Shown here: piece after piece, positions 4,031 through 34,300 of the stretch | Layout of the letters: the number at the start of each line of letters is the position of its first letter | Position numbering within the stretch: position 1 is the first letter of the stretch | Position numbers and translations under genes: made by a program | Notes under the pieces: generated by a model | Told to the model about the DNA's origin: nothing | The model's input: the letters and a program-made list of their open reading frames with translations, nothing else | The model's database searches: none | Assembly (NCBI GenBank): GCA_951406725.2 | Contig: OX597814.1 | Span: 84,444,001 to 84,508,000, forward strand | From: Octopus vulgaris | Taxonomy: Eukaryota | DNA length: 64,000 nucleotides | Direction of reading: 5' to 3'

Positions 4031-4367
4031 GAATAAATAGATGAGAAATTGATTTTCGGACCATGGGCAGCTGTGCATACAATAAGTTTGGCAGTATCTG
4101 GCAATGAAGGCCTCTCTTAAATCCAGGCATCCACTGTCTGCCACTGTCTCTCACTCAGTCACTTTCAATCATCAGTTGCATTTGAAGGAAAATAGTGTGG
4201 GAAAGTATAAATCCAACATACGACGAAATTGACTAATGACCTGTCAGTCGGAACGGAACTCAGTCGTCAAAGAAAAAGTGTAATCACAATCTACACCAAA
4301 GTAAACCCATGTGAATTATCTGAAACTCCTTTCCTTCCCTATCTGAAAAATTTCACAAATTTCAATA

Positions 4368-7881: not shown

Positions 7882-8136
7882 TAGTAATGAAGTCAAACCA
7901 AATAGCGATATTTCGAAGTTGTTTAATACATACATTTCAGGTTTGTGTAATATATGATAGGAAATGCATTCATTATGTAAACCTTTCTAAGTTAAAGCAC
8001 TTCAAAATATTTTGAACTGCTTTAACTGAGGAAGATTTACATAATGGATGCATTTCCTATTATATATTATACGTAACCTGAAATGTATGTATTAAGCAAC
8101 TTCAAAATATCACTATTTGGTTTGACTTCATTATTA
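7882..8136. repeat. ~255-bp loopless palindrome made of two inverted hammerhead-like motifs
   Basis: Arms of ~125 bp pair around the centre TTCAAAAT|ATTTTGAA (8001-8016); mismatches are mostly transitions. Confidence 0.93.
8018..8098 (+). ncRNA. Minimal type I hammerhead ribozyme-like motif (Penelope-type)
   Basis: Stem I TGCTT(T)AA/TTAAGCA; core CTGAGGA 8026-8032; stem II AGATTTACATAAT...ATTATACGTAACCT; GAAA 8080-8083; minimal stem III with loop TGTAT; cleavage triplet GTA 8089-8091. A more degenerate mirror copy lies on minus at ~7920-8000. Confidence 0.7.
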
Positions 8137-10962: not shown

Positions 10963-12391
10963 ATATATATATATATGACACATACATACATGCACACACA
11001 CATTATCCTGGGGGAGCCTTTATATAATCACTCAACTTGTTAGACATGGCACACAACAGTTGTTCCCTGAAATGAAACCCATTTTTAATGTGTCAAAAAA
11101 GAAAACATTGGGTAATATAATCCAAGAACAGCTGACCTGAAGGCTAAACAACTTATAACAATGGTTACTTTCACGTGCCAACAAATCATAGTGCATTCCA
11201 CACTATTACTTTATTTTGTTTTATTAATAGATGAAAAGTAATTTGCTTAATTTTTAAACTGTGAGTTACAGTACTAGGTCAGGATTAAGGTTAATATTCA
11301 AACCATATCATATATAAAAATTATAAATCAATGAAATAAGATTAGTATAAAATAAACAATTGCAGCATGGAAGATGCATATTAGCCATTCAGTAACACAC
11401 AAAGACTGTTGACTTTATTTAAACATTTATTATTTGTAATATGATCAATGTAATATAGTCGTGGCTAATACTGGTGTCACAAAACAGTCACCCATGCCAA
11501 TGATACGTAAAAGGCACCCTTTAAATATTGGGCTTCATGGAGGTGATAAGTGACCAAGACCTTTGATGATATGCCGTACTTGGGAAGACTCATGACAAAT
11601 GAAATTGTAGCTGTGGTCAATGTCAGTGTCACCTAACTGGCATGTAAAAACCATGCCAAATTAGATTGGAACCTAATACAATTCTCCAGCTTACCATGGA
11701 AAGCAGATGCTAAATGATGATGATGGTGTCAAAATTTCCATCACCTGGTCACTAACAACATAGTCACACTGTGTTTCTAAATGGCTAAAATGTGATCCAC
11801 ACTGCAATCATTTTAATTTTGACATATGATCTCAGATCAAAACACTTCCCATGCAAGTGCATCTCCATTTTAGTATAAAATAGAATTATGTAAATTTGTT
11901 GGGAACACTACAGGGATCTTTTCCCTTTCAATAGCAGATAGAAAGATTAATTTTTTGTAACTAAACACTTTCAAACTTCAGACACTGGTAGAATGTGTCA
12001 TATAAAACATCTTTTACTCTTAGCGTTTTTGAGAAAAGTTTATATTTTCAAAGTTATTTCGTGTTAAAGTTGTCGGATTTCGGTAATTTCAACCAATCAA
12101 TGACGTGTATTCAGCTGAATAAAATTACTGCCGTTGTTTGTCAACAACAACTATCGGTGGTGTATGTTTCATTTGTCAGTTATTTATGACATCATGTGTT
12201 TGTACTGGTTTTAGCTTTAGTGGGTTAGGGTTAGAGTTATGGAAAAAAGTGAAAAATGAAGAAATTGGAGGTGGGGGGTTCAAGATTCTGATTTTTGGCA
12301 ATTTTCCGGAATATCCATATCTGAAAAGCTGGGTTTTTCGCAAAAAAATGTTTAAAAAAACAATAATTTGAGAAAATGGTGGGGAGGAAGT

Positions 12392-13250
12392 CATCATCAT
12401 CATCATCATTTAGCGTCCGTTCTCCATGCTAGCATGGGTTGGACGGTTCAACTTGGGTCTGTGAAGCTGGAAGGCTTCATCAGGCCCAGTCAGATCTGGC
12501 AGTGTTTCTACGGCTGGATGCCCTTCCTAACGCCAACCACTCCGTGAGTGTAGTGGGTGCTTTTTACGTGCCACCTGCACAGGTGCCAGACAGAGCTGGC
12601 AAACGGCCACGAACGGATGGTGCTTTTACGTGTCACCGGCACGGGGCCAGGCGAGGCTGGCAACGGACACGAACGGATGGTGCTTTTACGTGCCACCAAC
12701 ACGGGGGCCAGACAGAGCTGGCAAACGGCCACGAAACGGATGGTGCTTTTACGTGTCACCGGCACGGGGGCTAGGCGAGGCTGGCAACGGGCACAAACGG
12801 ATGGTGCTTTTACATGCCACCGACACGGGGGCCAGACAGGGCTGGCAAACGGTCACGAACGGATGGTGCTTTTACATGTCACCGACATGGGGGCCAGACA
12901 GGGCTGGCAAACGGACACGAACGGATGGTGCTTTTACATGTCACCGACATGGGGGCCAGACAGGGCTGGCAAACGGCCACGAACGGATGGTGCTTTTACG
13001 TGTCACCGGCACGGGGGCCAGACAGAGCTGGCAAACGGCCACAAACGGTTGGTGCTTTTACGTGTCACCGGCACGGGGGCCAGGCCAGGCTGGCAACGAA
13101 CACGAACGGATGGTGCTTTTACATGTCACCGACATGGGGGCCAGACAGGGCTGGCAAATGGCCACGAACGGATGGTGCTTTTACGTGCCACCGACACGGG
13201 GGCCAGACAGGGCTGGCAAACGGCTACGAACGGATGGTACTTTTACGTGT
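12392..13250 (-). mobile_element. RTE-tail retroposon nested in the Merlin-like element
   Basis: (CAT)6 tail at 12392, then the RTE 3' end, continuing into the 61-bp tandem array. Confidence 0.8.
12555..13250. repeat. GC-rich minisatellite, ~12 units of ~60-63 bp
   Basis: Unit GGATGGTGCTTTTAC(G/A)TG(T/C)CACCG(G/A)CA(C/T)GGGGGCCAGACAG(A/G)GCTGGCAAACGGCCACGAAC repeated head to tail without unique spacers. Confidence 0.95.
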
Positions 13251-16200
13251 CCTTTCCGAAAATAGAAGCTGAAAAACAGGAAAGAAATCCTAAAAGCAGG
13301 AGAAATGCACGAACAATTATGGTGGTGCCATGAAGTAAACATACTTCAGATACACTCGTTTATTCACACGAACGTAACTGAGATGAAATATGTCATAAAT
13401 AACAGTGACAAACGAAATATACACCGCCGGAAGTTGTTGTTGACAAACAACAGCAGTAATTTTATTCAGCTGAATACACGTCATTGATTGGTTGAAATTA
13501 CCTAAATACAACAACTTTAACACGAAATAACTTTGAAAATATAAACTTTTCTCAAAAACGCTAAGAGTAAAAGATGTTTTATATGACACATTCTACCAGT
13601 GTCCAAAGTTTGAAAGTGTTTAGTTACAAAAAATTAATTTTTTGATCTGCCGTTGAAAGGGAAAAGATCCCACTACAGTAACCAATCTGATAAACAGGCA
13701 TGTAAAACATACATCTGCATAAAAAACAAAAAAGAAATAATCAACACAATGGTGACAACTTCAATACATCATCTTTAATTTGACAGCTTAACACTGGAGC
13801 AAGAATTAACAGACTTGATTATATATATATATGTCGGAAACAAGTTTTTTCTGGTATCTAATTCGACTAGAGGTTTTTTTTTTTCTTTTTCCTCAGAATA
13901 CTGTAGGAAATAGACAGAAGAATACAAATGAAACAATGGATTAAATGTTATTAAGCAATTTGTTCAATATGCTGTTTCTTTAATAAGTAATATTGTTTTG
14001 TTTTGTTTTTACTTCCAGAATTGGCACAAAAATTTTGTGCAATATTGACTACCATGATATAGCATTGACCTGTTCAGATGATGGAATCATCTTTTAGACA
14101 GTAATGCCTGCAGTCAAGATATATACACAATGGAATGGAGCTGGCAAAAAGAAAATAGCTTGGTCAGCTGTGAACTTCCAACAACTCCTATCACAGGCGC
14201 AATACACCAGTTGATATTTGGTGAAATGGGAAGATCTACAAGTTAAACCTTTTCATTTTCCTCATCATTCCCGCCTCAAAGTATGCACTAGAGAAAGATG
14301 TGGCAAAGTGATATGTAAAAACATGAGGCGGTGGTGATGATGATGAAACAGAGTGCATTGTTCGGCTAAGAAGTAACGATCACAGCTGAATTTCATGGAG
14401 ACTGTCTCCAACTTCCTGAATACTCCTACAACTGAAAAGTTATGTTCCATAACCTTTAAGCAGTGTAAGACGAGAGAGAGAAAAACAGAGGAGGTGGGGA
14501 GAGAAAGGAGGAGACATTCAAGATAGAACTCATTGTTATTGTCACACATATACATAATTTTTTTGTTGATTTCTTTGCTAGCAAAATCTTTAGCTTAATT
14601 GAGCGATTGTCTCATTTACTGGAGATCTTCAGAGCGAATGATTGGTCAGAAAAAGGGTAGAGTTGAATGATTAATGAAGTGGTCAGCAATGAAGAAACAT
14701 TCATTGGTTTTGAACGGAACCAGACAGCAGGGTTTGGCCAGCAATATTTCCATAGTAGAAAATTGTTTGTACTCTATGTACTCAGTCTTTCAAAATCTAA
14801 GACTTAAAATTCAAAGCAGACGCACATTTTACAAATACTATTGATACATAAATACATACCCTTTTTTTTTTTTTTTTTTTACTTAAGTATAAAACCCCAG
14901 ATTTATAGCATTAGTGATTATTATAAAGTGAAGCAGTTTCAGTAAGATAATCAAAACCAAGTTTGGATTAGATTAGCTGGGAAGTTATTACTGCATCACA
15001 ATCCCCTCTTCAACCCTTCCTTCCAAAAAATAAAATCACAAAATATGTATATTAAATAATTTAATGTGCAAATGGAATTTTCACCCAGCCAGGAGGATTT
15101 AAGTTTCTATTTTGTTAATTCACTTCAGCAAATTAGATTCTGTAATTAAAAGTCCTTACTGTGGTAGCAAGAGAGAGAAGAGAGAGATGGAATACTAGAG
15201 TATTTAACAAACAAAACTTTCCAGCAGCTGGAGAGTAAAGAGTGCTATATATATACACACACACACACACAGACACACACATAAATTAACACATACACAT
15301 GCGCATGCACACACCATGTTTCTAACATGGGATTGCAAGACTTGAGAAGTACCCGATTTTTCATGCTAGCATTGATTGGATAAGTCTTCAAATCTAGACT
15401 TTTGACTGATTTGTTTAAGCAGATATTTCAAGTATATTTTTCGGCTATGCAATTAAAGTAATGTTTTATGTATGGGTGAATTATATCCTTAACAAGTATT
15501 GAATACTGCCTTCAAAATAACACTGTACAGAGAAACTAGTCATGATGAACATTCTCACAAACACACACACAATTCATCATAATTATTATCTTCACCATTA
15601 CCAACAACAACAGAAAATTATTTTTCCCAATGATTTTTCAAACAGTTTACTTCATAAGATATTGCTGTGTACCTACTGTGTGCCATTTCAGTTACAGTAG
15701 ACAGTGTTTATATGTTACTCCTCAAAAAAGTAAAGGAGTGCTGTAAGATCATGCTATACAAGCATTCATCATCAATTAGAAATAATACTCTCACTAACAC
15801 TTACACATGTTAGTAATTTCAGCTAGCAAATTTTGCAATTTGTGTTTTTTTTCACATCTACTTTCCTATACTAGAAAATGAAAGAGAGGAAAATACTGTT
15901 TTGTTTGTTTGGCAAACTTGGATATTTGTATAAGAATCATGGATGCCTTTTGTGGTTACTAATTAGCCAACAATGAAGCTAGGTTGATATTTAGTTTTTC
16001 ACAAAGGCAAACTCAGACAGGAAAGAGCAGAATATAGTTGCTGTTAGCAGAATACAGCAGGCTGTCAGCAGCAACTTATCTTTACAGTTACAACTTATGA
16101 TTGATACATTTATACATCTAAAAAACAAAAAAATTACTCTACCAATGAATAGCATGATTTTCATTGTTGTTTGAGTTTAATAATCATATCACAGTGACAT

Positions 16201-18882
16201 ATTTCAACTAGCTCTTTACCTGGTCATTTTCTGACTCTTTGTATTAATATTGATAACAAAATATCTTACTTTTTATTAGTATTGGTGAAAAAGTACAGCA
16301 ACTGGACTTAGTGGCTAATACCAGCTGATAGGCAGCATCAGAGTACACAATTTAGACAAATGACACCAAAACAGTACATACATATATATATAGTGCAAAG
16401 GATTATGAAGAAATATGACCGACCTACTGCTACAAAGAATTCTGGTGCTATTTTGATCATAATAGACAACCCAGTTTTGCTTTAAATATATATAAAAAAA
16501 ATTAATGCTGACATTTAAACCACTTTAAACTCTTATTTGATCTGTTAATATATTTTGAAATTGTATATTATGCTAAACCTACTACTACTATCAATTACAG
16601 AGTGACAATTCATTGATCAACATCCTCAATAATCTAGTGAGCCAACAAGCAAAATCTCTCTAATAATCTCTCACAGTGAAGAATCCTCAACATTCACATT
16701 ACATTGTCCCATTTTATTTTTATTAAAGTGGAATAAAGAAGAGACATGAAATTAAATACTGAAATATATGCCAGATTATCACTAACTTAGAGAATAGTAT
16801 GCTTGATATAAAGGTAAAAGAAGATGGAGATGAATTATGTAGCACAGCAACTTAACATAAGCAAAGGATGTTGACAGACTGAAGGGTAAGCCAAATAGCT
16901 TCATGATCTTATATTATGATGGAATGTTAGTGCAAAGACATTTATGTTTTGAGCAAAATATTTTAACATTGTTTAGAAACAGAATGAAATTTTCCAGCAG
17001 ATCTTTTACAGGTGGACAAAATGAAAATGAAACAAAAATCAAACAAAACAACACATAAGATTGACAGGGACTAAAGATATTAGTTTACAAAATGGAATAT
17101 AGATGTTAGTTTTCAAAATGGAATAAAGATATCAGTTTTCAGAAAGCCTTTGTTATTAAATTAATAAATTTGTAAAGAAAAAAATTTGCTCAAGCTGTAA
17201 TTTAGACAAACTACACAGCTGCATTTTTATATTTTCTATTGTTAATTATAATTTGTCAGTAGAGAAAATGACAAGTAGGCTAGCAAACTATGAGGTAGAG
17301 TTACGTAATAAAAGCCTACTGAATCAATATAATCTCCAATTTCTCAGTTCCTCAACAAACTGCAAAAGGTTAACTCATGGAAGAAATAGTTCTAATACAT
17401 AGAAAAGATGAAAATAAGAAAAGAGTGAAGTCAAATCTATCCTGCAAATAATTTTTAGTGATGCTGCCAGAAATGATGAAACATCAAACATTCCCTCTCT
17501 TAGCTGCTTGTGAACCAAAATCTCAAACATACAGGTTACAATTTAGTTTAATGGCAGTGCACACAAAGGTCAGTGTCTTAAATTGTACCTGCAAACATAT
17601 TGCAACAGATAAAAATATACAAGACCTGCATAATTTATATCTATATATTAATAATCTAGCTGTAGGCAAGTTAGAGCAGGAGGCTAATAAAAACTGCTTG
17701 AAAGACATTAGTGGAGCTAAGAGAAATAGCTCAAGACAATGGCATGGTTTTTAACTAAGTATGACTGGATGCACTGAATTTATATAATAGTGGAAGGGAT
17801 TTTAAAGTTTTCTCCTCTAGATTAGAGAGCATATTACTTCCAAAAACCACAAAAGTATAAACATGAGTAGTTCATTTCAGATGGTTTTAGACACCATAGG
17901 ACTGACAGAAAGACATACGATGTTGTGCAGATTTGTGCCATACAGGATGTTAAGAGTTAAATCTTAATTCATTGAAATACACTCTTCTGTTTTTTGTGAA
18001 TTGCTAACAAATGCCACTAGACTTTTGTGTTCTTTATCTAGTTTAGAGGAAATTTTCAGTTCATTAAGAATATATTTTCATACATCATTCAGTACAGTCA
18101 CACTTACATAAGTAAAAGCCTCTATTTATTAAGTAGGTTCATATTGTCTATTCTTCAGAGACTGTCACTGTCTTTAAGAATGATCAGATTTTCCTCTTAA
18201 GCATGACAATCAAATTAATTTAATGAAATTATCTCACCTCTTCTAACAAAACAAGCAGGTTTTTGTTTCCTTTCTTCAACTAAATGTAAAATTGCATTTT
18301 ACTAAAAATGTTTGAGTGTATTTCATTCAGCAAATTCATTCAAATCCCATATTTCCATAAAAGAAGCAGATCAATGGTGCTAATTAAGTAAAATCAGTGA
18401 ATTGATTATGTAGTTGTACTTGTTTAGCAAATCACTTGATCTGATATCAGATGTTTAAACAAAAACTAACTGTGGAACAATCATACTACCCATTTAAAAC
18501 TATTTATGGTTATATTCCTTTTTGGTCTTTTTTTGTGATAATCTTTGGTATATTTTGTTATCATAATGTACTATAAAGCGTCATAAATTAGTCGCTAAAG
18601 CAATTCCATTGCATGTTTTATTGTATTAAATCATTATAACAATAGATATGCTACTGGTAAACTTCTTACAAGAGAGTGTTACATTTGATAAAGTAATTAT
18701 CTAGAAAAGATAAACAACAGACTATGGCTATGTAGTTAAGTTCAATTAGAAACCACATGGTTCCAGATTTGATCCTACTGAGCAGCACTTTGGGGAGGTT
18801 AAGCAGTCTTGAGAATTATATTTTAGTAGAAGAGTAACTGTGCAGAATGCATATACAAAAATCATCAGATGTACATACACAC

Positions 18883-18888
18883 TTTATT
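18883..18888 (-). terminator. Candidate polyadenylation signal AATAAA at the base of a long hairpin
   Basis: Plus-strand tttatt at 18883-18888, followed on minus by GTGTGTATGT and TTTTTGT tracts. Confidence 0.35.
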
Positions 18889-19084
18889 TTTGAATCAACA
18901 AAGCTACCAATGGTTTCATGTGGAAAGGGTATCAACAATTCTTCAAGCTGTCCTTTAAAAACACTGATAATTGTCTCCATTCAAAAATGGAGACGATTAC
19001 CAGTATTTTTAAATAGATTGCTTGAAGAAATGTGGATACCTTTTCCACATGAAACTATTGGTAGCTTTGTTAATTCACAAATAA
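18884..19084. repeat. ~200-nt hairpin (arms ~98 nt, 4-nt loop) made of two inverted hammerhead-like motifs
   Basis: TTATTTTTGAATCAACAAAGCTACCAATGGTTTCATGTGGAAA...GTCTCCATT-CAAA-AATGGAGAC...TTTCCACATGAAACTATTGGTAGCTTTGTTAATTCACAAATAA. Confidence 0.93.
18897..18953 (-). ncRNA. Hammerhead-like motif, sense to DGCR8 (core position 3 is U instead of C)
   Basis: Minus strand: ACAGC-TTGAAGA-ATTGTTGATACCCTTTCCACAT-GAAAC-CATTG-GTA-GCTTTGT. The plus-strand mirror has TTGAAGA 19022-19028, a perfect ATGTGGA/TCCACAT stem II, GAAAC 19051-19055 and GTA 19061-19063. Confidence 0.5.
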
Positions 19085-22000
19085 CGAATGCACCAAATGC
19101 AGTGTTGAATACTGATTATTATTGTTCAATAACATTGCGTGTTTGAGTGAGTATGTGTGTCTGTACACACACTGGCATGGGATGGTCAATCAAAATCAGC
19201 ATGTGGCATTTAGTCACATTATGCCAAGGTTGATTTTACCTTTCATCTCTTACATCATCAATAAAATAAGTGTCAAATAAAGTACTAGGTTTAATACAAG
19301 CAGTTAAAACTCTAGGAGGTGAAACCAGAGCATGAATCAATAAAAGAAAAAGTTGATATTTACAATAGCAACGAGATATAAATGAAATTAGAAAACTGAT
19401 AAAAGATGGCATAAATTCTTGTAAAAGAGAGACTAAATAAAAAGCCTTTGACAAAGAAATTATAGCTTCACAAAAGAATGTGCTATGAATGGGAATATTA
19501 TAATGTAGAGAAGTTCTTGTTTTGCAGCTACTGATAATTCAAATAATTCTTTCACATTAATATTCACAAAAACCTTTTAGTGTCAGCTGTTGCAGATATG
19601 TTACTGTCAGGTTTGCAGAGAGATCTCATTTGATGATAGACTGCTATCATTATCACAGAAACACTATTTGATGACACTGGCAATCCACTAGGAACATTGC
19701 ACAGCCTAAAGCCATTGAATTTGAGCTTGAATTATAGTTCAAATTCTTGTCATACCTGGATACCTGGCTACTGTCTTTCATCTTCAGTAAGGAGAGGGAG
19801 AGATTGTAGCAAAAAATATACCTGATCAGTTGTCAGCAGAATTACAACAGCTTTTAAGGTATTGCAAGGAAAGAGAAATATATGGAAGATTTGTAGCGCC
19901 TGAGTGTCTTGAAGATGAAAAATATTGATTTCTGACATAGGTACAAAATATAACTTTGATGTATAGAGATTTTCAGTGACAGCTGTGTACTTCCTCTAAA
20001 TCTGAGTTTTAAGATAATGTCCCTTTACAGTAAGCTAAATATATTGTAATGAGGTATAAGAACACTGAAAGGAACAATAAGAGAAGAATTTAAATTCATA
20101 TTCAGCATGTGAAATAGCAGCTGTAGACAATATTAAGACAATATAATGTATTAGATGCCAAGGAATAATGGAAGGAGAGACAATATGATGGTAATTGTGA
20201 ATTAAAAATTGACTAGTTCACACATCTATTACCTTCATTTTTCTGGGTTTAAACTTGACTTAAAAAATAGCCACTTAATTGATAATAATGATGATAATAA
20301 TAATGATCATGATGATATCAGTGTTTATTCACTGCATTAATTACCTTCAGCTGCCAGTGAAAATAAGTGACTAAGAGAAACAAGAGTAGTAAATGCATAA
20401 TTGAGCCAATGTCCTTGCAACTTGAAAAAGCATTTTGATTTTTGATGACTGACTCCAAAATCAAGTTCATATGAAGTGAAAATAGTTATAAAATAAATGG
20501 TTTCTAATGTAACTTCACTAAACTAATCCCAGCATAAATGATTTCAGATTCCCTTCAAGGAAAGACACATAAATGCTAGGGCCTTTTACATTTTTAACAG
20601 TTATATATAGTAAAAACAACCAATGAAGGAAAAAAATTGGATCAGAACAGAGATATTTCTGGTAGTGAGAAATGAAATAATCTACTAAAAACAAAGAAAA
20701 GTGGTTTCATGACATTCAAGATGTGAATAATTCAATTTAAGGAGACAAAACTTTTACTTAAATCCTGATTCCTGACAAATATATATGTATGAAAAGAAGC
20801 TAAAATACGAAGAAAATAAAAAAAAAAAACCTATGCAGAAAAAAAAAAAACTCTGGTCAGATTACATTTCAAATAGAGAGGAATAACTGAACCATATCCA
20901 CACCAATTTTTAGAGCAAGAGACACTACTTAAAATCTAACAAAATGACTACCTGCTATAAAGTATCTTACATGATACTGTTTTGAACAATGCAAACTTTT
21001 TTCTTCAAATATCTGAGTCACAATTTATATTGTGCTTGGGGGCTATAAGAATAAAATCAAATGTATCTATTAAAGAGATTACACACACACACACACACAC
21101 TATGTATGCTTGCATATGAAGGAGTTAGCCCACCATAAACCATAAAATATATCTGCTTTGAAAATTCAACCATAAACTTGGATTTCCTCTTTAGTTGAGA
21201 ATTTTAAATTAACAAGAATTACATATGAATCTGAAAATATTGATCAGTGTGTGTATGTGTGCGTGCGCACGCACAATACACAACAACTGATATATGAGAA
21301 ATAAATTATTAAAAGGCTATCATCACTTTACTCCAATTTTAGCTAATTTCACTTTAACCATGATAGCTTAGGAATGGGAAACTAACCATGTGTGTATATG
21401 TAATGTCAACATCCAAATATTTAAATGAGGCAGTAATAGAAGAATATGGAATGGGCAAGGAGTACTTGCCTCCCTTGGTTATCACAATTTTTCACCCACT
21501 TATTCTGTATATATATAAATGAGAGCACACAGAATTAGATGAGCTAGGAGGAAGTGGTGGCTGGATTAACAATTGTGCTTCATCCTCCGACTGCAAATGC
21601 TTTCATTTTAAGTTCCATGTAAAAGTCCAGAGTTATAATGAAGTTTATCAAAAACAAACATCTGTCCCTCTTCAGTCAGCGGAAGGCTAGCTACACAACA
21701 TCAACACATTTCTAATTGAAGTGATGCAGTGTAAATGTAAATGCAATAAAAAAATAACATATAAGATACAGTGTAATTAGTTGCTGGATTTTGAGATAAC
21801 AAACAGTTCTATGCAAACAATTGACAACTATAGTGCAAGATACTGGAAAGTGTAAAGAGATTTTTTTTAAAGATGACATGTAGGAAGTTCCTCAAAAGTA
21901 GACCCCCCCCACCCACAAAAATAAGAAAAACATTGAGGACGCCATATAGTTCAATCACACTTCAAACAACTATGGCTAAGACAGACAGAAATGGGTAGTG

Positions 22001-22255
22001 TTTTTGTGGAAGATCAGATTGATAGTTGAGTGCAGTAATGGAAAAATGACCAAGTCATTGACTCAATATTACTTTTCTTCAAATGACATTCAAGTTAAAG
22101 TTGGTGGTGGGTGAAAGAAAGAGAATGTGTGTGGGTGTGAAAGAGAGAGGGAGAGAGAAACAATTGGCTACAAGCATTAAAATTGAAAACAACAGAGTAA
22201 TCTTAAGTGCATTGATAGCATAAATTAACAAACATCTGTAAACAAAGGACTAGTA

Positions 22256-22333
22256 TCAGAGGTCTAATCCTGACACATTTCCTACAGGGACAGCTGATTC
22301 AAGCCTCAACTTTCCTCTTGATTTGATGGATTC
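22256..22333 (-). CDS. DGCR8: DGCR8 terminal coding exon
   Basis: tttgcAG acceptor, phase 0; [25 protein letters not shown] then TGA at 22258-22256. Confidence 0.85.
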   Translation of the reverse strand, partial: ESIKSRGKLRLESAVPVGNVSGLDL

Positions 22334-25300
22334 CTGCAAAAAGTAAAAATATAATTAAATTTCATTACACAAAATTATGCAAATTCTTTTATTTTTAGAA
22401 TTAACGAAATCATTTTTAGTAATGTATGTAATGTATTCAGGTTTTTAAACAACAAAAAGTTGTTCTGAATGGTTTAGACAACTATCGATTGTTACATCAT
22501 ATTTGCAGACGTCTGCGACACAGATTTTCTGCTCAAATAACAAAACACTCATCTTGCATGTTTTTGCTATTGAATTTTAACAGGCCCACATAAAGTTTCA
22601 TTTAACATTTCATATAACTACAACTTACAGTTATAGTATATAACAGAAAAGTTATTATACAACTGGAATGATACTCTTAAATATTATACAAGATAGTTAC
22701 AATATATTTCATGCCAACGGCTCCAAACAGATCCAAAAGTAGCCACTCATATAACTAGAAGAATTCTATTAAATAGCTATTAGTTACCAATAAAGGTCAA
22801 GCATAATTAACCATATAATATATGGATGTCAATGAGTCTTTTGTAGTTGTAGTAAGTTAACAGCAATATAATAAACATCTATGCACCAATTAAACATAAA
22901 TCCACAGCAGTTGCCAACTATCAATGTACCAACCAAAATCAAAACTGTACTACAAAACTGCCTCACAAACAAAATTCATTTTAATACAGATATATACAGA
23001 CATGTAGATACACAAATGTATGTAGATCCATGTGTGTGCACGTATACACACACACTAAAAGTTGGTAGATCCAACAGTATTGTGGCTGAGATATATTAGT
23101 GAAGTCTATGATATGGGAATGTCGTGGGGGAGTGGTGATATCGGAATGTTGTGGGGGAGTGGTGATATCGGAATGTTGTGGGGAAGTGAAAAAGCTGAAT
23201 AAGTTGCAGAGATCAACATTTTGAACATACAATACAAATGGTAATAATGGTAACAATACAAAGAAACTAAGTATTAGTGATAGTGGTGGGAGTAGAAAAT
23301 TGTTACTTTGTAAGGAATATAAACAAAAATTAGGAATAATATAGATTATCTTCAAAAAGGAACATGCCCCACTCTTCTTAAGTCCACAGGTTCCTTCCAC
23401 TATTAGAGATCAGCACTTCTTTATGCAGCTGTTTTTGTCCATATGCATCATAAGACAATACCAACGCAGTCTTCTCTCCTGCACACTATATCTGATGTCT
23501 CTTGCACATCCAGCAGAGAATGCTAACTTCATTTCTTTTAAGCATTTGCATATCCTCTGCGGCCACAGGCATCAATCTGCCCTTACTCTGAAGAAGAGAC
23601 CCTTTGTTACCAACATCATCATCATCATTAACAACATCATCGTTTAATGTCTGCTTTCTAAGCTGGCATGGGTTGGACGGTTTGACTGAGGACTGGCAAG
23701 CCAGAAAGTTGTACCAGACTCCAATCTGATCTGGCAAGGTTTCTACAGCTGGATGCCCTTCCTAATGTCAACCATTCTGAAAGTGTAGTGGGTGCTTTTT
23801 ACATGCTACCGGCATGACAGCCAGTCAGGTGGTACTGGCACTGACCATGCTTGAATGGTGCTTTTTACATGCCACCAGCACAGGAGCCAGTCAAGCAGCA
23901 CTGGCAATGACCGCACTCAAATGATGCTTTTTATGTGCCAGTTAGGCGGTACTGGCATCGGCCATGACAATGACTCAACAGGTCTTTGCAAGCACAGTTT
24001 ATTGCCCAATGATTGAAGTGTACTTTTAAATGGCTGGTTATGCTACACTGGCATAGGCCACAGTTATCTCCAAAGGTCTCATTCACTCGTCATCGCCTCC
24101 ATGAGGCCCAATATTTGAAAGTCGTGCTTCACCACCTCATCCCAGGTATTCCTCTTCCAGAGGTTCCCACTACTGCTAGGATTTGACACTTTTTCACACA
24201 GCTGTCCTCATCCATACACAACATATGACCATACCAGCACAGTCGTCTCTCTAGCACACCTCATCTGATGCTTCTTATGTCCAACTTTTCTCTCAGGGTA
24301 CTTACACTCTGTCATGTATGCACACTGACATTAATCATCCAGCAGAACATACTAGCTTCATTTCTTGCAAGCTTACACATGTCCTCAGCAGACACAGCCC
24401 ATGTTTCACTGCCATGTAGCTAAGCTGTTCACATACATGCATTATACAGTCTACCTTTGTCACCAGCAGAGAGGCCCTTTATCACCAGCAAAGGTAGGAG
24501 CTCTCTGAACTTTGCCCAGGCTATTCTTATTCTAGCAGCTACACTCTCAGAGCATCTACCCCCACTACTGACTTAGTCACCTAGGTAACAGAAGCTATCA
24601 ACTACTTCTAGTTTTTCCCCGACATGTGATGGAAGCTGGGAAGCTGTTTTCTGCACATTTTCAGTGATTATTGCCTCTGAGCATTTGCCACACAAACTAT
24701 CTTCCCAGTTAGCCTTCCTTTGAAATTGCTGCACCTTTTATGTGTCCATAGTTTACACCAGGTACATCTTATGGAGTTTCTACTGACACCTTTTCTACAG
24801 ATTGAGCAGGGCCATCTATCTGAAGGGATTTGTGATTTTTATGCCTTCCTACTTTTTAAGACTTTGGTTTTTGCAAGATTGACTCTAGACCTTGCTTCCA
24901 CACCTGAAACTTTTCCTCAAGTTCTGATAGTGACTCAGCTATTAGAGCAAGGTCATCAGCATACAGAAGCTCCCCAGAGGCATCCTGTTTTGAATTCCTC
25001 CATTATTGCCTGGAGGACTATGATGAATAAGAGGGGACTGAGGATCCTTGTTGGACCCCTACCCGAAATTCTTCACTATACTCATTGCCAACCCTCACTT
25101 TCCTGACAGCATCCCTGTACATGGCTTGTACAGCTCTCACTAACCACTCATTTATCCCTAGTTTCCACATTGACCACCTGATAAGGAATCAGGGGAGACC
25201 CTTTCAAAGGCTTTCTCCATGTCAACCAGCACCAGGTACAGAGGTTTATCTTTGGCTAGATATTTCTCCTGCAGCTGTCTTACCAGAAATATAGCATCAG

Positions 25301-28300
25301 TGGTACTTCTCCCTGGCACAAACCCACACTGCCTCTCATCTAAACTAACTCTCTCCCTAATTAGTTGGGCTATGACCCTCTCCATGACTTTCTTTACCTG
25401 ATCCAACAATTTGATACCTTTGTAATTATTCGTATCTAATGCATCACCTTTACTTTTTTAGTAGTTGACTATGGTGCTGCTACACCAGTCATTGGGTATG
25501 ACTCCTTCATGTATCATCTGATTGACTATACAGGTGACTAGACTATAGCTGACACTGCCAGATATTTTAAGCATCTCTGCAGTGATTCCTGATGGGCCGG
25601 GGGATTTCCCTGTCTTCATATCCTTAATTACTTTATCTACCAAGGTACTGTCAATTCGGATAGCTGGGCCCTCAGTTGGGTCAACATTCGGCACACTCTC
25701 TTTCTCTTCATTTAGCAACCTTTCATAGTGGTGTCTCCAAGTCTCTCTCTTTGCAGTCTTATTAAATGCAAGTGAGCCATCATCCATGCAGACATTTCTC
25801 TCCTATGACATCATGATTCTCTCTCACACACTGTCTTGCAACATGAAACATTGACAAGTTTTAGTGCACCTGAGCACTATACACAATAATTTCATTATTA
25901 TAACTGGGACATATTTCATTAACCCTGAAAGGATGAAAGGCAAAGTTGACCTCAGCAGAATTTGAACTCAGACATAAAGATAGACAAAATGTCACTAAGC
26001 ATTTTGTCCTGCGGACTAACAATTCCGCCAGCTCACTGCCTTATCAATGTATGTAATAATAAAAATGTCATTAGACTATATATAGTAATGAGTCTAAAAT
26101 TTAAAAAATCAATTACATCAAAGAACCAGATATTTCCAGAATTGCAAAATACTGACCCTCTGTAATTTAATCTTGCGCATTTCTTCTCTGAGTTTCTCTA
26201 ACACTGCTGTATTGGGTTTGTTGGACTTGGCCTGAGACTGTAATTCAGTAATGCTCTGCTCTTCTTCCTGAAAGAGAATAATGCAGAAAAAAATCCTTTA
26301 GTAAACTAAAGTGCTGACAGAAATGAAATAATAAATACAAGACAACTCAAACTTCTGACAGTTTATTATCCCAGGGAGGAATCCTAAATGGGAGTCTATA
26401 CAATATCAAAACAAGACATCTATGGAAATTCTTTATAATTTTCTTATAATTCATTTTGCCAAGTCTGATTTTTTAAAAATGAAATTATAGATATAATTTG
26501 AAAAATATAATTTTCATAAGTAACAAGAGTCTGATAATGAAATAAATACTTTGTATATGTTGTCTCTGTAATTTCTTTTACTAATAAATCTGAAAGAATT
26601 TTATTAATTAGAATATGTAATAAAATCGATTATAGTAAATGGCATACAGCTGAATGTTGTTTCCAACATCAATCGTTTAAGTTTGATATGAGAAGAGTGA
26701 AAATATTATCATAAATGTAAGATGGGATAAGTGATCATGAAATACCATTGGAATGGTTGGGACTAAGACATATTATTGAGTCAATCAAAACCATGTGAGT
26801 GAATCTGATAAACATAAATTGAAAGAAGTGGTGTGTGTGTGAGAGAGAGAGAGAGAGATTTCCAGTCTTCCATGAAAACATGCCCAAAAGACAAGGGGAG
26901 TTATTACCTTACTTGGAAACATTTGAAGGTTGATGACAGGAAGGGCATCTAGCCATAGAAAATCTATCTCAACAAATTATGCTTGACCCAAGCAAACACA
27001 GAAAAATGGATGTTAAATGAACGGGGATGATGACATTCCAATTTAGATCCTTTTAATTTACTAGCTCAGCCAAAGGTAACTTGTTCCAGAGATCAATTTG
27101 ATAACTAACAATGTACTCATGCTAAAACATAAACATTATATACCATCCAATTTTAGATATATGCAGTTGCTTATAAAAAAAATAAAATTTGCATGGCAAG
27201 CTTTTTTTTATTTAAAGTTTCTTTTTTTCTTCTAATCCTCAATACTTGTTTATTTATTAGTCCTGCTGATAAATGAATGAGTGTTTACAATAAGGAATAA
27301 AAGTGGTAGAAAAAATAGCACTGGTTCAGACTACCTAGTTGTCTAATTTTCTAAATAATTATAGTAAAAAGTTTTTTCTAGTTACTGATATCTTAATTTA
27401 TTTTATATTCTTAACTTATTAATTATTGCCATTGAATAATTATTATATAAAAATAGATGTTCAAGTTAACTCTTCCTCTATTATTTGAAGTAGTCTATAT
27501 TCAGTAACAGAAATGTTTAATTATTTATGGTAAGATCTAATAATGCTAGTAACATCTAATAATGCTAATGACCTATTTATAACATGCTATTTGTTGAGGG
27601 CAAACGGATGTAAATAGTTCAACTGACAGGAATTATGAGGCTGTTGGAGTTGATGCCAACAAAGTATGGCTTGTCTAGAAATGATTTCTTTCGTATGACA
27701 AAAAAATATAAGACAATGAAGAAAATGTATTTAATGGAATAATACATAAAACTTGAAACATCAAGAAGGAAAAATATCTTACTTTCTTTTCACGGATTAT
27801 TTTGAATGAAATTCGACCATACAGCCGTAATAAAGAACCCCAACTGGTAATATGTGGATGGAGACGCTGGAAAAATATTTTAAAAATTTAGTATTCTTCT
27901 TTGTGATTAAATAAGCATAAAATAACAAGTACATAGTACAAATAATTGTATTATAGTTTCCAAAGTCAACTGAATATATGAGGACTTGAGTTTTACTATA
28001 CACATAAAGCTACTTGCTCAAAAAACACTAAAATATTAACCCATTAGCATTTAAACTGGCCATATCCGGCCAAAATATTCTGTCTGTTTATGTTCAAACT
28101 GGCTTTTCACACCAACCCAACAATATCATTCTAAAAATTAATAGTTCCCTTATCAAAATCTGATAGCTACAAGATAATTCATAATTCAAAACAATGTGAA
28201 TAAAAAAGCATTACTTTTGATAAGATAATGTGAATGCTGAAGGGTTAATCCTTTTTTAAGAGGTATAAGTAAGAGTTGAAAATGTATTATAGAGATGTAG

Positions 28301-31300
28301 AAGTATTTATTTTGTATTGGAAATTTATACAATGAACATGTTCATAAAAAAGTTTATGAATTATCTTATATATAAAGTTGTATCAAATTTCCTTAATGAA
28401 ATAAACACAAACAATTTTTATCCTTCAGAAAAAGGAAAATTAAGTCTAATTTCTAAATAAATTGTCAACACCGTAAAACGTACCTGCAATATAGCCTGTG
28501 CAGCTTGTTGTTTTCCTTCTCTTTTATTTTTACACACAACCTGAAAGTAAAAATATACCAGGTAGTTAAATTACTGGGAAATTTAAAGAGTTAAACAAAA
28601 CAAAAATAAAATAAACACAATGCTACCACTAAGCCTAAATTATATTCCTTTACTGGTTTCATTTAGAGCAGTGGTTCTCAACCAGGGTCTATATGGCACG
28701 AGGAGACCCAATAAGATTTTATGTACAATGAATCGATCATATTTCTACCATGTGCAAAATATTTTAATTTTTTATACAGTTCCTAATAATATTTAGTTAT
28801 AAAAATACAATAGGATTTTTTTTATATACAACAAATGGCTATGGAGGTCCAGTAGAGTGAAAAAAGTATCAAAGGGGTCCATAAGTACAAAATGGTTGAG
28901 AACGATTGATTTAGAGCATTTACCAAAAATAACCTTTAATTATAGAAGACAAAAATTGAAATTGTATGTGGAAAAGTTAGAGGGACAATAAATTGTACTA
29001 GAGAACAACTTTAAGCAAAACTGATAAATAGTAACATGAGGAAAGTCAAGATTATATTTCAATTATTATAAAAATTTCATCAAAGGTTCCTAATAATTTT
29101 TATCATTTATCCGTTACTTGTTTCAGTCACTGGAATGCAGGCATGCTGGGGCACCATTTTAAAGGATTTAGTTGAACAGATCAACCCCAGTACTTATTTT
29201 TAAGTTTGGTACTTATTCTATCAGTCTCTTTTGTCAAACCACTAAATTACAGGGATGTAAACAAACCAACACCAGTTGACAAGTGGTGATGAGGGGATAA
29301 AAGAACTTACTGATGCTTTATGCTTCCCAACAGTCATAGTAAATTCACTCTTTTGGTGCTTGAGAGTCTTCATTTCCATTTGACACTGAGTGTCTCCCAT
29401 ACCATAATTCCTACAAAAAAAATTCAAAAAATTATATTTAAATCAAAGAGTTTAATCACCCAAAGTTTGGGAGTAAATTTTGTGTTTAAAAGCTATCTTA
29501 CTTTTTACTCATAATCTTTGGTGCAATCAATCTCAAAAACAGGGAAAGGATTATTGTTGTGGATCTGTTCAATTTGGATCACAGATTTTTTTATTAATTT
29601 TTTTTAACTAAACAGTTTTAAACTTTGAATACTGGTGGAATTTCTTGCCCAGAACAAGGTTTACTTTGCACATTTTTGACAAAATTTCATATTTTAGAAG
29701 TTATTTCATGTTAAAGTTGTCATATTTGGGTAATTTTAGCCAATCAATGATGTGTATTCAGTTGAAGAAAGCTACTGTTGTTTGCAATAGTAATCAAAGA
29801 GGAACAGCTTCCAGGTCATCTCTACTAAATGTCACTACTCTGTTCTATTTGTATGTCAAGTGAAGAAGGTGCCACCTTTATCCTTTCTAGTCAGGACCCT
29901 GCATTCCTTACTCTTTCCCTCCCTACAGGTAGACAGCCACATCTACACTATCAACTAGCAACCAAACTGTCACTGCCACTACAATTACCATATTTTCCTG
30001 TGTATAAACTGCTATTTTTTACTTGGGAAATTTAGTGAGGCTTATAGAAAAGTGCGCTTAATATGTGTACTTTTTTTATAAGTTTCAGGAGGAAAATAAT
30101 TTGTGTATGGAGATTGACCGATTCCACTGATTTTTTTCAGAGGAAAGATCGGTTGGTGAACAATGTGAAAGACTATAGCAACAGTACATTGGTGCCTGGA
30201 AGAAAACAAAGCATACTTGTTTTACCTTCATATTTTGATAATGTTATTTTTAATCTAATAAAGACTTTTATAATGACAAAATGTGTTTGTTGTTGATTAT
30301 AGTAAGATAAAATTATAACAATAACAATACATCTCATAGTTAAAAAAGCATGTAATATGCAACCCAGGCAGTAAACAAAAAATAAAATAGAACAGAGTGG
30401 TGACATTTAGTTGAGATGACCAGGAAGCTTTTCCTCTTCGATTACTATCACAAACAGCAGTAGCTTTCTTCAACTGAATAAACATCATTGATTGGCTAAA
30501 ATTACCCAAATACAACAACTTCAACACGAAATAACTTCTAAAATACGAAATTTTGTCAAAAATGTTCAAAGTAAACTGTGTTCTGGGTGAGAAATTCCAA
30601 AGTTTCAAATTGTTTAGTTAAAAAAAAATTAATTAAAAAATCTGTGTGCCAAACTGAACAGATCCATTGTTGTAGTCATTTAGCCCCAAGTTGACCCTGA
30701 TTAAGCAGACATATGAGCAAAAGCATCCCAGCATTAATCATCCCATCTTTAAGACACCATGTATCTAATACTACAATATCCAACATAGTCTTAAATATCA
30801 TCTTAGACAGCAGTCTGTGATCGAAGGGAAATTTGTGTTATTCCTGGCAGGTCAATTAGATATGTAGAGGCTCTTTTTTTGGCTCAGGAAAGAGTACATT
30901 GTATATGTGCATGGTGACTGAATGGCAATGTGGAGTGGCACAAAATTTTGGTGAGTGAATAAATCACTAAAACTTGAAGAGTTATACACAGAGAATTAAT
31001 TTACTCATGCTCAAACAAATCAGAGTATGAGTTACATTAAAAAACAAACAAAATATCGCTTACAGAAACTTATAGAAAAATTAGATTTAAAATTACATAT
31101 TCCAAAGAGGCAAGGAGATCTGAGTAAGATCTAATAATGCTAATGACCTATATTCTTTTACTATCTTAAAAGCCACATTCCATGCAGACTTTTAAGCTAG
31201 CTCCTGTTACAGTAGGAAAATTTATTGGATAAAAAATAAGAAAAAGCAAAACACAATGATGCCATTCATAAAATCCAATTTGTACACAATTGCCCTAAAT

Positions 31301-34300
31301 GTTATCATTCTTACTTTATATCAATCCAGGCAACTTGCATATATATCAGATTTATAGAAAAGCACTGGAAACTGTTGAATTTATATGCAATATAATTAGG
31401 GAGATTGAGAATTGTTCCTTCTAAAACTATAACAACTAATCATTTCCACTATTTACTAATTTCCCAACAACTTCAATGAAATATTATCCTTAATGAAGGA
31501 AATATCTCTCATCCTCAGAAGAATAACCTCACATAAAAACAAAAAAATGAGAAAGCTTTCCTTGTTGAAACCCAATGCTTACCTGCGGAGACATTCTAAT
31601 AAGATCTGATAGGGTGTTGGCTGTCCAGCTTTATTACAAAGTTCATAGACACGGGGGTCTTCTATTTTAATTTCATCAAAAAACTGAAACAAATGAGCAT
31701 TATTCTGTTAAATGATTTCAGAAAATTTAACATTAGGACAAACTGCATAAACTGATTCTAGGATAACACAAGCTGAAGAAAAAGAATATGCTTTAATGAA
31801 AACAAACTTAGGTTTACAATAGATACAACACTAACTTCAATACATTTCAAACAGACTTAAATTTAGATTTGACAAATCAATAATTTGATTTAGGAAAAAA
31901 AAAAACCATTCCTTTAGGCACTTCTGAAATTACAATTCTATAATATTCAATTACCATTTTTTCCAGAACACACTTATTTTCCTCCCATCTCCATTTCAAC
32001 ACAGTTGTTTTGTTCACATGCACCAACAGTACTACTAAAATCCCAGCAACATTCACAGATTATTCATCACATGTACTTAACTTGTCTATATTAATAGATC
32101 ATCTGTACTTTACTAGTATTAAAGAGTGACTGACTGAGTCGTTAATAACAACAACAGTCCACTAAATTTCTTATACATTCGTTTTAGTTATTCTCAGTTA
32201 AGTATATATAGTATTGTATTAAGCCATTATAATAACATGATAAAATTTACTTACAGACAGATCTTCAGATTCATAACTCTTGTTGTCTTCTGTCATCTTA
32301 TTCATTTCAGGAATTAACACTTTAAGTGTTGCTTTCGCTAAAATGAGAAATAAAAAAGCCAAAAATAATGAGCTTTCATGTAAACAATAGAGAGATTGAA
32401 ACAATGTTTCACAGTTTGGTTCAACTCAAACCAATATATATATATATAAAAAAAAGAAACATTTAACTGAACATTGTTTCATGATGTAATAAAGCTGAAA
32501 TCTTCATACACAAATATCAATTACAAGTCAATGGAGAATCTTTAACCTGTTAGCTTTCAGATTATTCTGCCAAATGTGATGCTTATTTATTCACATTACT
32601 TCAAATTCATCATAAATTATCTCATAGCTTTGAAATGTTGATGGTATGATCTGACCAGCTTAAATTCTAAAGGGTTAATAAAATTTACTTAATAAGCCAA
32701 TATAAACTAATAAACTAAATATAATTTCTAAGTGTTCAGGCCATAATCTATACAATAAGATACACCTTAAAGACTAGATAGCAAAGTTCAGTAAGCTACT
32801 TGAATAATATATTTTGAACACACTCAACACTGCTTGAGAATGCAAGATGGCTCAATCACTAGGGTACTGGATAACTAGCTGAGAGGATTGCACTGTATAT
32901 CCAGTCGCCAGTATTGTGTTGTATCTGTGTTTAAGACAAATTGTAATGGTTAAGTTCACCTAACAGTAAACAGGTATCATAAATGTTAATAATTCTTTGT
33001 TGTAAACAGATTCAGCACTGTGTAAGTGAAGAGAGCAGAGTTCAGTTGCACTTTTCAAGAAAAGCTGTGACAAACATTCTTTACAAGGGAATATTTTTTT
33101 CTCTCAACTCGACACTCCAGGAACCAGAGAGAGAGGCACCACCTCTATATATCTTTGTGATTCAGAAAGAAGAATTAGCATTACAGCTTAATGATAGTTA
33201 AATGTACTCTGCAACAAAAAGTCTAAGGATGACTCAAGCAGAAATAAGCTTGTTTTTAATATTTGTCACAATCATCATCATCTAACATCCATTTTCCATG
33301 CTGGTATGGGCTGGACAGTTGGCAGGAGCAGGCCAGCTGAAAAGCTGCCCAGGCTCCCAATATTAAATACATTTTAAAGCAAAATCTAAATGAACGGTAA
33401 ATGAATAAATGTAAATTAATTCACCTGCTTCCATCTTAGCAGCTTTTTTGCTTCCAGCAAATCCCGTACCATATTCCACATCATTTATCACAATAGTTGC
33501 ACTGTAAGGAGTTTGAGCATTTTCTACAAAATTAAAGAAAATAGTTTTATGGATTTTCAAAATTAAAACAACAGTAGAAAATCACAAAAATTAAGCAATG
33601 TTTTTTTTTTCACAGCTTTAAAAATTGCAAAGAAAAATAGGAACGAAAAAAAAAACAAAAAAAAAAAACTTACCGACTTCTCTAAAAATATATCGTGGTT
33701 GTACCCGCATTGTATGCTGGACGTATTCATGTAGTATACACACATAAGACTTGCCACTAGGGTTTAGAACAAATTCTGAAATAAAAAGTTGTACATCAAC
33801 TCTCAAGCTAATCTATATGAGTAGAACTGACAGTATCATACCTATGAGTTTTATTTGGGGAATAAACCACCTTAATGCTACATTTATGAAGCAGCCAAAA
33901 GAGTGTAGTTAATGAGAGGACAGTAAATCTCACCCAATCACACTATTTCTTGCAAATTCATGCAATTTTATATGATATGTTGGAACAAGTAATTCAGAGA
34001 TAAACTTTGAACTGCTAACCACTTACCTATAAAGTAGGAGTGTGGGACTAATTTCACCTTCTGATTACCCATTATCTGATCTATCTACAAGTTTATTCTA
34101 CTGCCATTCTCCATACTTCTGGTATTGCCACTTATCACCTCTTCTGAACTAGACCCATTTCTTTCACCTTCCCTCTCATACTATTATTTACCATCAACTA
34201 CACTTACGCCTTGTTCTAGTTCCTAGAGTCACCTCTGAACCTGCCCATGACTACCTGTCACTCTAATGAACTTATCCATTCACCCTTCCCAATTTTATAT

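Follow-up and report, generated by a model that had tools for sequence, protein, structure and literature searches.

A long hairpin in the likely DGCR8 3' UTR of Octopus vulgaris, very probably a truncated Hydra-type Penelope-like retroelement

The long hairpin that lies behind the DGCR8 coding sequence of Octopus vulgaris is almost certainly the remnant of a truncated Hydra-type Penelope-like retroelement (PLE), and it is probably a neutral passenger in a long DGCR8 3' UTR. Judged by its sequence, the insertion would be a new, decayed member of the Hydra-type Penelope-like kind. Those features that give it the look of a regulatory switch (the AAUAAA at the stem base, the A:C mismatches, the hammerhead-like motif and its U at core position 3) are, by comparison with other family copies, family traits or neutral decay. 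All positions below are those of the window, the whole stretch of 64,000 nucleotides that was analysed.

Position and structure of the hairpin

Two open frames on the minus strand match human DGCR8 at residues 595-630 (E 3.6e-8) and 710-746 (E 2e-4), and the gene is identified by these two exon matches, while the last coding exon and its stop (22258-22256) are inferred. The preliminary description had placed the hairpin 3.2 kb behind the DGCR8 stop on this strand, in agreement with the 3172 nt that separate it from the inferred stop. The first long coding exon of DGCR8, with the acidic N-terminal region, lies at 63527-64201 and runs past the end of the window, and the likely start codon is ~200 nt beyond that end. 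The coordinates of the individual features are collected in Table 1.

Read along the minus strand, positions 19084-18986 pair with 18884-18981 to give a stem of ~98 bp closed by the 4-nt loop UUUG. The predicted energy is -126 kcal/mol compared with -43.6 +/- 3.8 kcal/mol in 200 shuffles (z = -21.7), so that the stem and loop first described are borne out by folding. The outermost stem pairs include 18888-18884 of the AAUAAA at 18888-18883, as had been noted, with base-pairing probabilities of 0.97-0.99 in four of its bases and about 0.7 in the last two. Also as described, the stem holds three 1x1 A:C mismatches (19056/18912, 19041/18927 and 18995/18972) and G:U pairs, of which there are four; a fourth A:C lies within a 2x2 loop, and the largest internal loop of the stem is a 2x2 one at ~65 bp from the base. 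The arms differ at 14 of 97 positions, or 0.08 per arm, and ten of the private changes fall in the 3' arm, which bears the motif and the AAUAAA, against four in the other arm. The sense strand of the element is the plus strand, antisense to DGCR8, and the element reaches ~50 nt past the coordinates of the preliminary description, its tail extending to ~19133. A contig from a DNA run that may derive from the source sample covers 18899-19550 with no difference.

Table 1. Features of the hairpin and of the putative DGCR8 gene in the window
Feature	Positions	Strand	Basis
Inverted tail-less copy of the element 3' end, the hairpin 3' arm in DGCR8 RNA	18883..18981	-	56-arm alignment; profile match E 2e-31
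AAUAAA where the inverted arm naturally ends	18883..18888	-	28/56 arms
Type I hammerhead-like motif, degenerate, in the sense of DGCR8 RNA; predicted cut after 18905	18902..18949	-	
Apical loop, 4 nt, the inversion junction	18982..18985	-	
Direct pLTR-like copy of the element 3' end; DGCR8 RNA carries its complement as the 5' arm	18986..19084	+	Alignment; profile E 2e-39
Hammerhead-like motif mirrored in the direct arm, antisense to DGCR8	19019..19066	+	
One-sided ~50-nt tail, followed by TG/CA-rich sequence	19085..19133	+	80% identity to family majority
Likely 3' UTR upstream of the hairpin	19063..22333	-	Probable RNA run X1, 5415-nt contig
Last coding exon and stop of DGCR8 (inferred)	22256..22333	-	Splice acceptor, sequence and frame
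Open frame with DGCR8 exon, C-terminal tail region	26121..26297	-	Matches human DGCR8 710-746
Open frame with DGCR8 exon	31582..31707	-	Matches human DGCR8 595-630

The fold-back family and its parent element

A search of the 2.8-Gb genome with the hairpin returned at least 79 matches at 68-94% identity among the 40 of 198 candidates that were scored. Other loci, 14 distinct ones from this search followed by 2, 20 and 14 more, were extracted as 3 kb pieces, and a BLAST search with the arm and its tail retained 56 arms spread over 37 loci, partial arms being left out. The same head-to-head palindrome was present in 15 of the 37 loci, the DGCR8 locus included, folding at -61 to -135 kcal/mol, and in every one of the 15 a tail of ~50 nt was attached on one side only. 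Accounts in PMC8557442 and PMC3846280 describe PLE insertions as an inverted 5'-truncated copy together with a one-sided tail. The octopus copies share both characters and differ in that their ~50-nt tail is longer than the 30-40 nt given for PLEs in these accounts. A run of TA/CA/TG type adjoins 31 of the 56 arm ends, a count that carries no background control, and the flanks of the DGCR8 locus are only decayed TG/CA-rich sequence. Target-site duplications were looked for and none was found.

A palindromic MITE of a DNA transposon was our first guess, dropped when symmetric ends proved absent in 15 of 15 palindromes and no duplication was seen. That reading, or an assembly artefact in its place, would fit a short, dispersed palindrome next to TA-rich DNA. 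The one-sided tail and the attached RT/endonuclease-type ORF speak against it, as do the unbroken DNA-run contig and the 14 differences between the arms, and we give it next to no weight. Many short pieces of other family copies in the DNA runs also fall on the hairpin arms.

The arm is also linked to an ORF. Single-arm copies run on into a common upstream sequence, and at two loci selected by their arms (L016 and L042) remnants of a decayed ORF precede the arm in the same sense (tblastn E 2e-10 and 8e-30). Conversely, the ORF protein gave 9092 first-look candidates in the genome, of which 150 were scored, and a profile search found the arm at 9 of 14 loci picked by the ORF protein alone, or at 8 of 13 once L053, which had helped to build the arm profile, is set aside. 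The arm lay downstream in sense in six of these ORF-picked loci, about 300-1100 nt on, and an inverted arm lay on the 5' side in 5 of the 14. This link, together with family membership and architecture, upholds the earlier proposal of a retroelement-derived fold-back.

Longer relatives of the ORF, of which 85 were found, reach ~700 aa, and the linked ORF remnants align along such ~700-aa relatives with their YxDD and a C-terminal YIG-type region. Among the 34 relatives of at least 660 aa, YxDD is present in 32, an RWK-type motif in 29, CxCx5C in 24, CxxCxxEK in 33 and, with a loose pattern, DK[TS] in all 34; CxCx5C was also read directly in octopus locus L054. These can be set beside the RWK, DKT, CxCx5C linker, CxxC and CxH motifs listed as marks of the Hydra clade in the relevant part of PMC8557442. 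The Atlas clusters of the ORF carry GIY-YIG/HTH_animal, with GIY-YIG on 15-27% of members, and Pfam named no RT or GIY-YIG in the family's own fragments (7 + 7) or in six full-length relatives. The Hydra-type assignment is drawn from motifs, precomputed PF26215 and Atlas clusters. A second, different Penelope-like element, with Pfam RVT_1 and GIY-YIG, lies at L050:2191-3298, directly behind a Hydra-type remnant.

The closest described element is Hydra-1_Obim of O. bimaculoides (Craig et al. 2021), which according to the supplement of PMC8557442 inserts in (TA)n and has a 3' hammerhead. The octopus family resembles it in the CxCx5C linker, the CxxC..EK/CxH motifs and the TA-type flanks, and probably in the endonuclease-type C-terminal ORF. 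Compared by eye, it also shares a hammerhead-like motif near the 3' end in the same layout, with an extra base after A9, an AU-closed helix II and an ACCA-N-UGGU helix III. In contrast to the CUGAAGA of Hydra-1_Obim, the core starts with U and position 8 has drifted, which marks a different, decayed family, and the DGCR8 copy keeps only ~250 nt. On a divergence scale of 0.09 for 25 My, as given in a portion of PMC13282606, the per-arm divergence at the DGCR8 locus would put the insertion at roughly 20-25 My, a rough estimate.

Membership in this family accounts for most of what had seemed switch-like. AAUAAA ends 28 of the 56 arms and 8 of the 15 tail-less arms; since it marks where the inverted copy stops, it stands at the stem base by construction. 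On the minus strand of 15000-22250 there are seven AAUAAA, the hairpin's own included, and five AUUAAA. A:C and G:U make up 4 and 4 of the 14 mismatches here, compared with 99 and 106 of 341 family-wide (binomial p = 1.0 for the DGCR8 locus); a transition in one arm appears as G:U when one strand is read and as A:C when the opposite strand is, so that an even A:C/G:U ratio is what neutral decay yields. Non-majority positions common to both arms number six, in the middle of the family range of 2-13.

Other repeats were seen in the window. A longer, near-perfect fold-back of ~125 bp (7882-8136, -172 kcal/mol) lies downstream of DGCR8 and has no match to the Hydra arm profile, and one of ~70 bp (36330-36485, -72/-80 kcal/mol) lies within a DGCR8 intron; because the same window holds these two as well, long fold-backs are not rare here. 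Positions 11899-13685 and 29561-30599 are related elements with terminal inverted repeats of 280 nt (92%) and 215 nt (91%), the former enclosing an array of about eleven 62-nt units, and decayed LINE-like and LTR-retrotransposon-like frames were recognized by eye from translations at 1867-4040, 24000-25800 and 38900-41300.

The hammerhead-like motif

The motif first described on the 3' arm, with its cut after 18905 and its U at core position 3, stands as reported, and the U proved to be family-wide (53 of 56 arms). On the sense strand UUGAAGA starts at 18946 and GAAA at 18917, the predicted cut lies 16 nt before the AAUAAA, position 8 is G, a helix II pair is broken by a G-to-U change at 18934, and helix III is near-palindromic. 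Across the family position 8 is G in 18 arms, A in 16, U in 12 and C in 7; this position also differs between subfamilies of the family, which occurs genome-wide, for example at L003, L005, L011 and L043. The CUGANGA core occurs in 0 of 56 arms. GAAAC is present in 45 of 56 and helix III is well kept, and helix I has two kept pairs. A tight family hammerhead pattern gave 26 exact matches compared with none for a reversed control. Core-column conservation was 0.92 compared with 0.79-0.81, a comparison biased by leaving out the variable position-8 column. Despite G-C/A-U swaps, helix II showed no covariation above background (ranks 67 and 126 of 1378), and covariation as proof of a hammerhead fold was dropped. 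Rfam reported nothing at gathering score in the window, and its 26 matches to E 10 were to generic hairpin models far below their cut-offs, with no hammerhead family among them. From the family alignment, the motif is inherited from the element and its register is right by homology; we read the non-canonical core as decay in the family.

In architecture the motif is like the hammerheads of Cervera and De la Pena 2014 (PMC4209133): type I, with a short helix I, a long helix II and a small palindromic helix III. The paper also reports metazoan PLE hammerheads that occur in twos, one on each strand and separated by 100-700 bp, and a U3 variant of minimal hammerheads that carries A8. Unlike that compensated U3-A8, the DGCR8 copy has U3-G8, a departure from the C3-U4-G5-A6-N7-G8-A9 / G12-A13-A14 core of active hammerheads, in which 3 and 8 are paired, and the hairpin keeps it bound to its complementary arm. 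In another PLE, breaking 3-8 abolished cleavage and did not stop insertion in vitro, according to a section of PMC11167929. A natural U3/G8 variant from a halophile is mentioned in PMC7151607, and U3-G8 alone therefore does not prove a dead ribozyme.

Energies weigh further on the fold. In the lone arm the hammerhead fold comes to +0.8 kcal/mol compared with -4.3 kcal/mol, and forcing it in the hairpin costs 63 kcal/mol; by these values the DGCR8 copy is not able to form the three helices. That the 3' arm self-cleaves as a hammerhead and cuts DGCR8 mRNA after 18905 is, in our estimation, extremely improbable, even with a layout homologous to that of the listed Hydra hammerhead, kept GAAAC and helix III and known U3 variants. 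Set against these are U3 with G8, the absence of CUGANGA, the weak helix I and the broken helix II. Only one sense motif is present per transcript, single PLE copies stayed uncleaved in vitro and need a dimer partner in the experiments given in PMC4209133, and the complement of the motif is transcribed first. Modelling thus predicts that the hammerhead cannot form inside the hairpin and that self-cleavage is nil.

Transcription and possible consequences

Fourteen runs from four studies (61-199 million letters of contigs), guessed to be RNA, hold 0.80-0.93 of the 559 words of 17500-22500. Since 0.72 of that interval lies upstream of the AAUAAA, the runs reach past it if the words are even and the runs are RNA. 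In run X1, a contig of 5415 nt begins at 19063, where it takes in 22 nt of the 5' arm, and runs past 19550; the one change listed for it, C>T at 19372, is G>A on the gene strand and not of A-to-I type, and it has two further differences that are unlisted. On 18350-18882 no contig of the locus was seen in any of four runs, DNA runs among them, and the runs labelled organisms B and C gave none for the locus. Its length would fit the UTR plus spliced exons. The ~2150 nt left over are presumably about the size to be expected of the upstream exons, estimated with human numbering. These sequences make it likely that the hairpin is present in the DGCR8 transcript. Probable RNA runs X1 and X13 also contain fragments from other copies of the family, whose loose ends differ from the DGCR8 locus, and other copies are likely to be transcribed as well.

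The insertion is best pictured as a single 5'-truncated integration of the element, antisense to DGCR8, into TA/CA-rich DNA. Once transcribed, the ~98 bp duplex would hide the hammerhead within the stem, along with five bases of the AAUAAA. Unspecific editing by ADAR would probably act on this duplex; cropping by Microprocessor would be poor, and the mRNA would likely end at poly(A) signals further on. The nearest likeness is to 3' UTR duplexes of inverted-Alu type, which are likewise retroelement dsRNA in a long 3' UTR, likely edited, and may be kept in the mRNA or left out of it according to the poly(A) site used; the DGCR8 hairpin differs from them in being one insertion with abutting arms and not two separate insertions.

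A real but unselected side effect, in which the duplex is hyper-edited, diced or masks the AAUAAA and DGCR8 mRNA changes modestly in its length, its stability or its export, is a possibility that we regard as unlikely. It is favoured by the great stability of the duplex and by probable read-through past the AAUAAA, and octopus editing lies mostly in introns and 3' UTRs, where the relevant part of PMC9699675 ascribes it to hairpins. Against it, nothing observed here points to an effect, and because the insertion brought signal and mask together, masking would only cancel its own effect.

Co-option would go further. The fly pasha mRNA hairpin is a case of Microprocessor feedback. Mammalian DGCR8 mRNA, one of the few known mRNA targets, is a Microprocessor substrate through conserved hairpins in its 5' UTR and coding sequence, as described in part of PMC2736397. 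The preliminary description had proposed that the octopus fold-back may have been recruited as a 3' UTR switch working through Drosha/DGCR8 cleavage, ADAR editing or self-cleavage. Such a switch could act by Microprocessor feedback, or by editing that loosens the stem and exposes the AAUAAA. This finds no positive support: the features are inherited or neutral, the hammerhead cannot form and the stem has no bulge. We consider such co-option quite improbable. The likeness to the mammalian case is that the same gene has a hairpin in its mRNA; unlike the hairpins of PMC2736397, the octopus one lies in the 3' UTR, is three times longer with a 4-nt loop, and is repeat-derived and, by inference, young, whereas known feedback hairpins are conserved and at the 5' end. 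Some invertebrate Microprocessors handle long stems (PMC12553114), which would favour cropping, and the octopus stem is without the internal bulge that such long substrates need. Also in favour of co-option, a scan of 63400-72000 (the first coding exon plus 8 kb upstream, with 5' UTR exons unmapped) found no convincing canonical pri-miRNA-like 5' hairpin, and a GU/U-rich stretch lies downstream of the AAUAAA.

Arm-to-arm identity at the DGCR8 locus is 0.86, above that of all the other 14 palindromes (the next two have 0.85 and 0.84, and the median is 0.75), which would also fit selection, but this hairpin had been picked for being a fine hairpin. Neither A:C mismatches nor shared changes are in excess, the AAUAAA is inherited, and the arm with motif and signal is the more decayed of the two. 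Our literature search found no report of a cephalopod DGCR8 3' UTR hairpin in the portions of the sources that it covered. The searched supplements of PMC9699675 (24,410 characters) make no mention of DGCR8, pasha or Drosha, and the paper's tables of isoforms and of editing may be relevant here. Should an octopod lineage nevertheless have recruited a PLE fold-back, which we hold to be improbable, cropping opposed by ADAR might set DGCR8 level or poly(A) choice. The hairpin would then be a retroelement-derived counterpart, reached by convergence, of the 5' feedback hairpins of vertebrates, and RNA editing would be linked to miRNA biogenesis in a cephalopod.

As a neutral passenger, by contrast, the insertion most likely matters little for DGCR8, and its meaning lies with the family. 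A long hairpin, the AAUAAA at its base and a hammerhead-like motif all arrive with one truncated PLE insertion, and with this ready-made supply switch-like arrangements would recur wherever the family lands in a transcript. The Hydra-type lineage continued to spread even as the core of its hammerhead was drifting, which agrees with the in vitro insertion results in PMC11167929, and the family is a likely genome-wide source of ADAR substrates in octopus.
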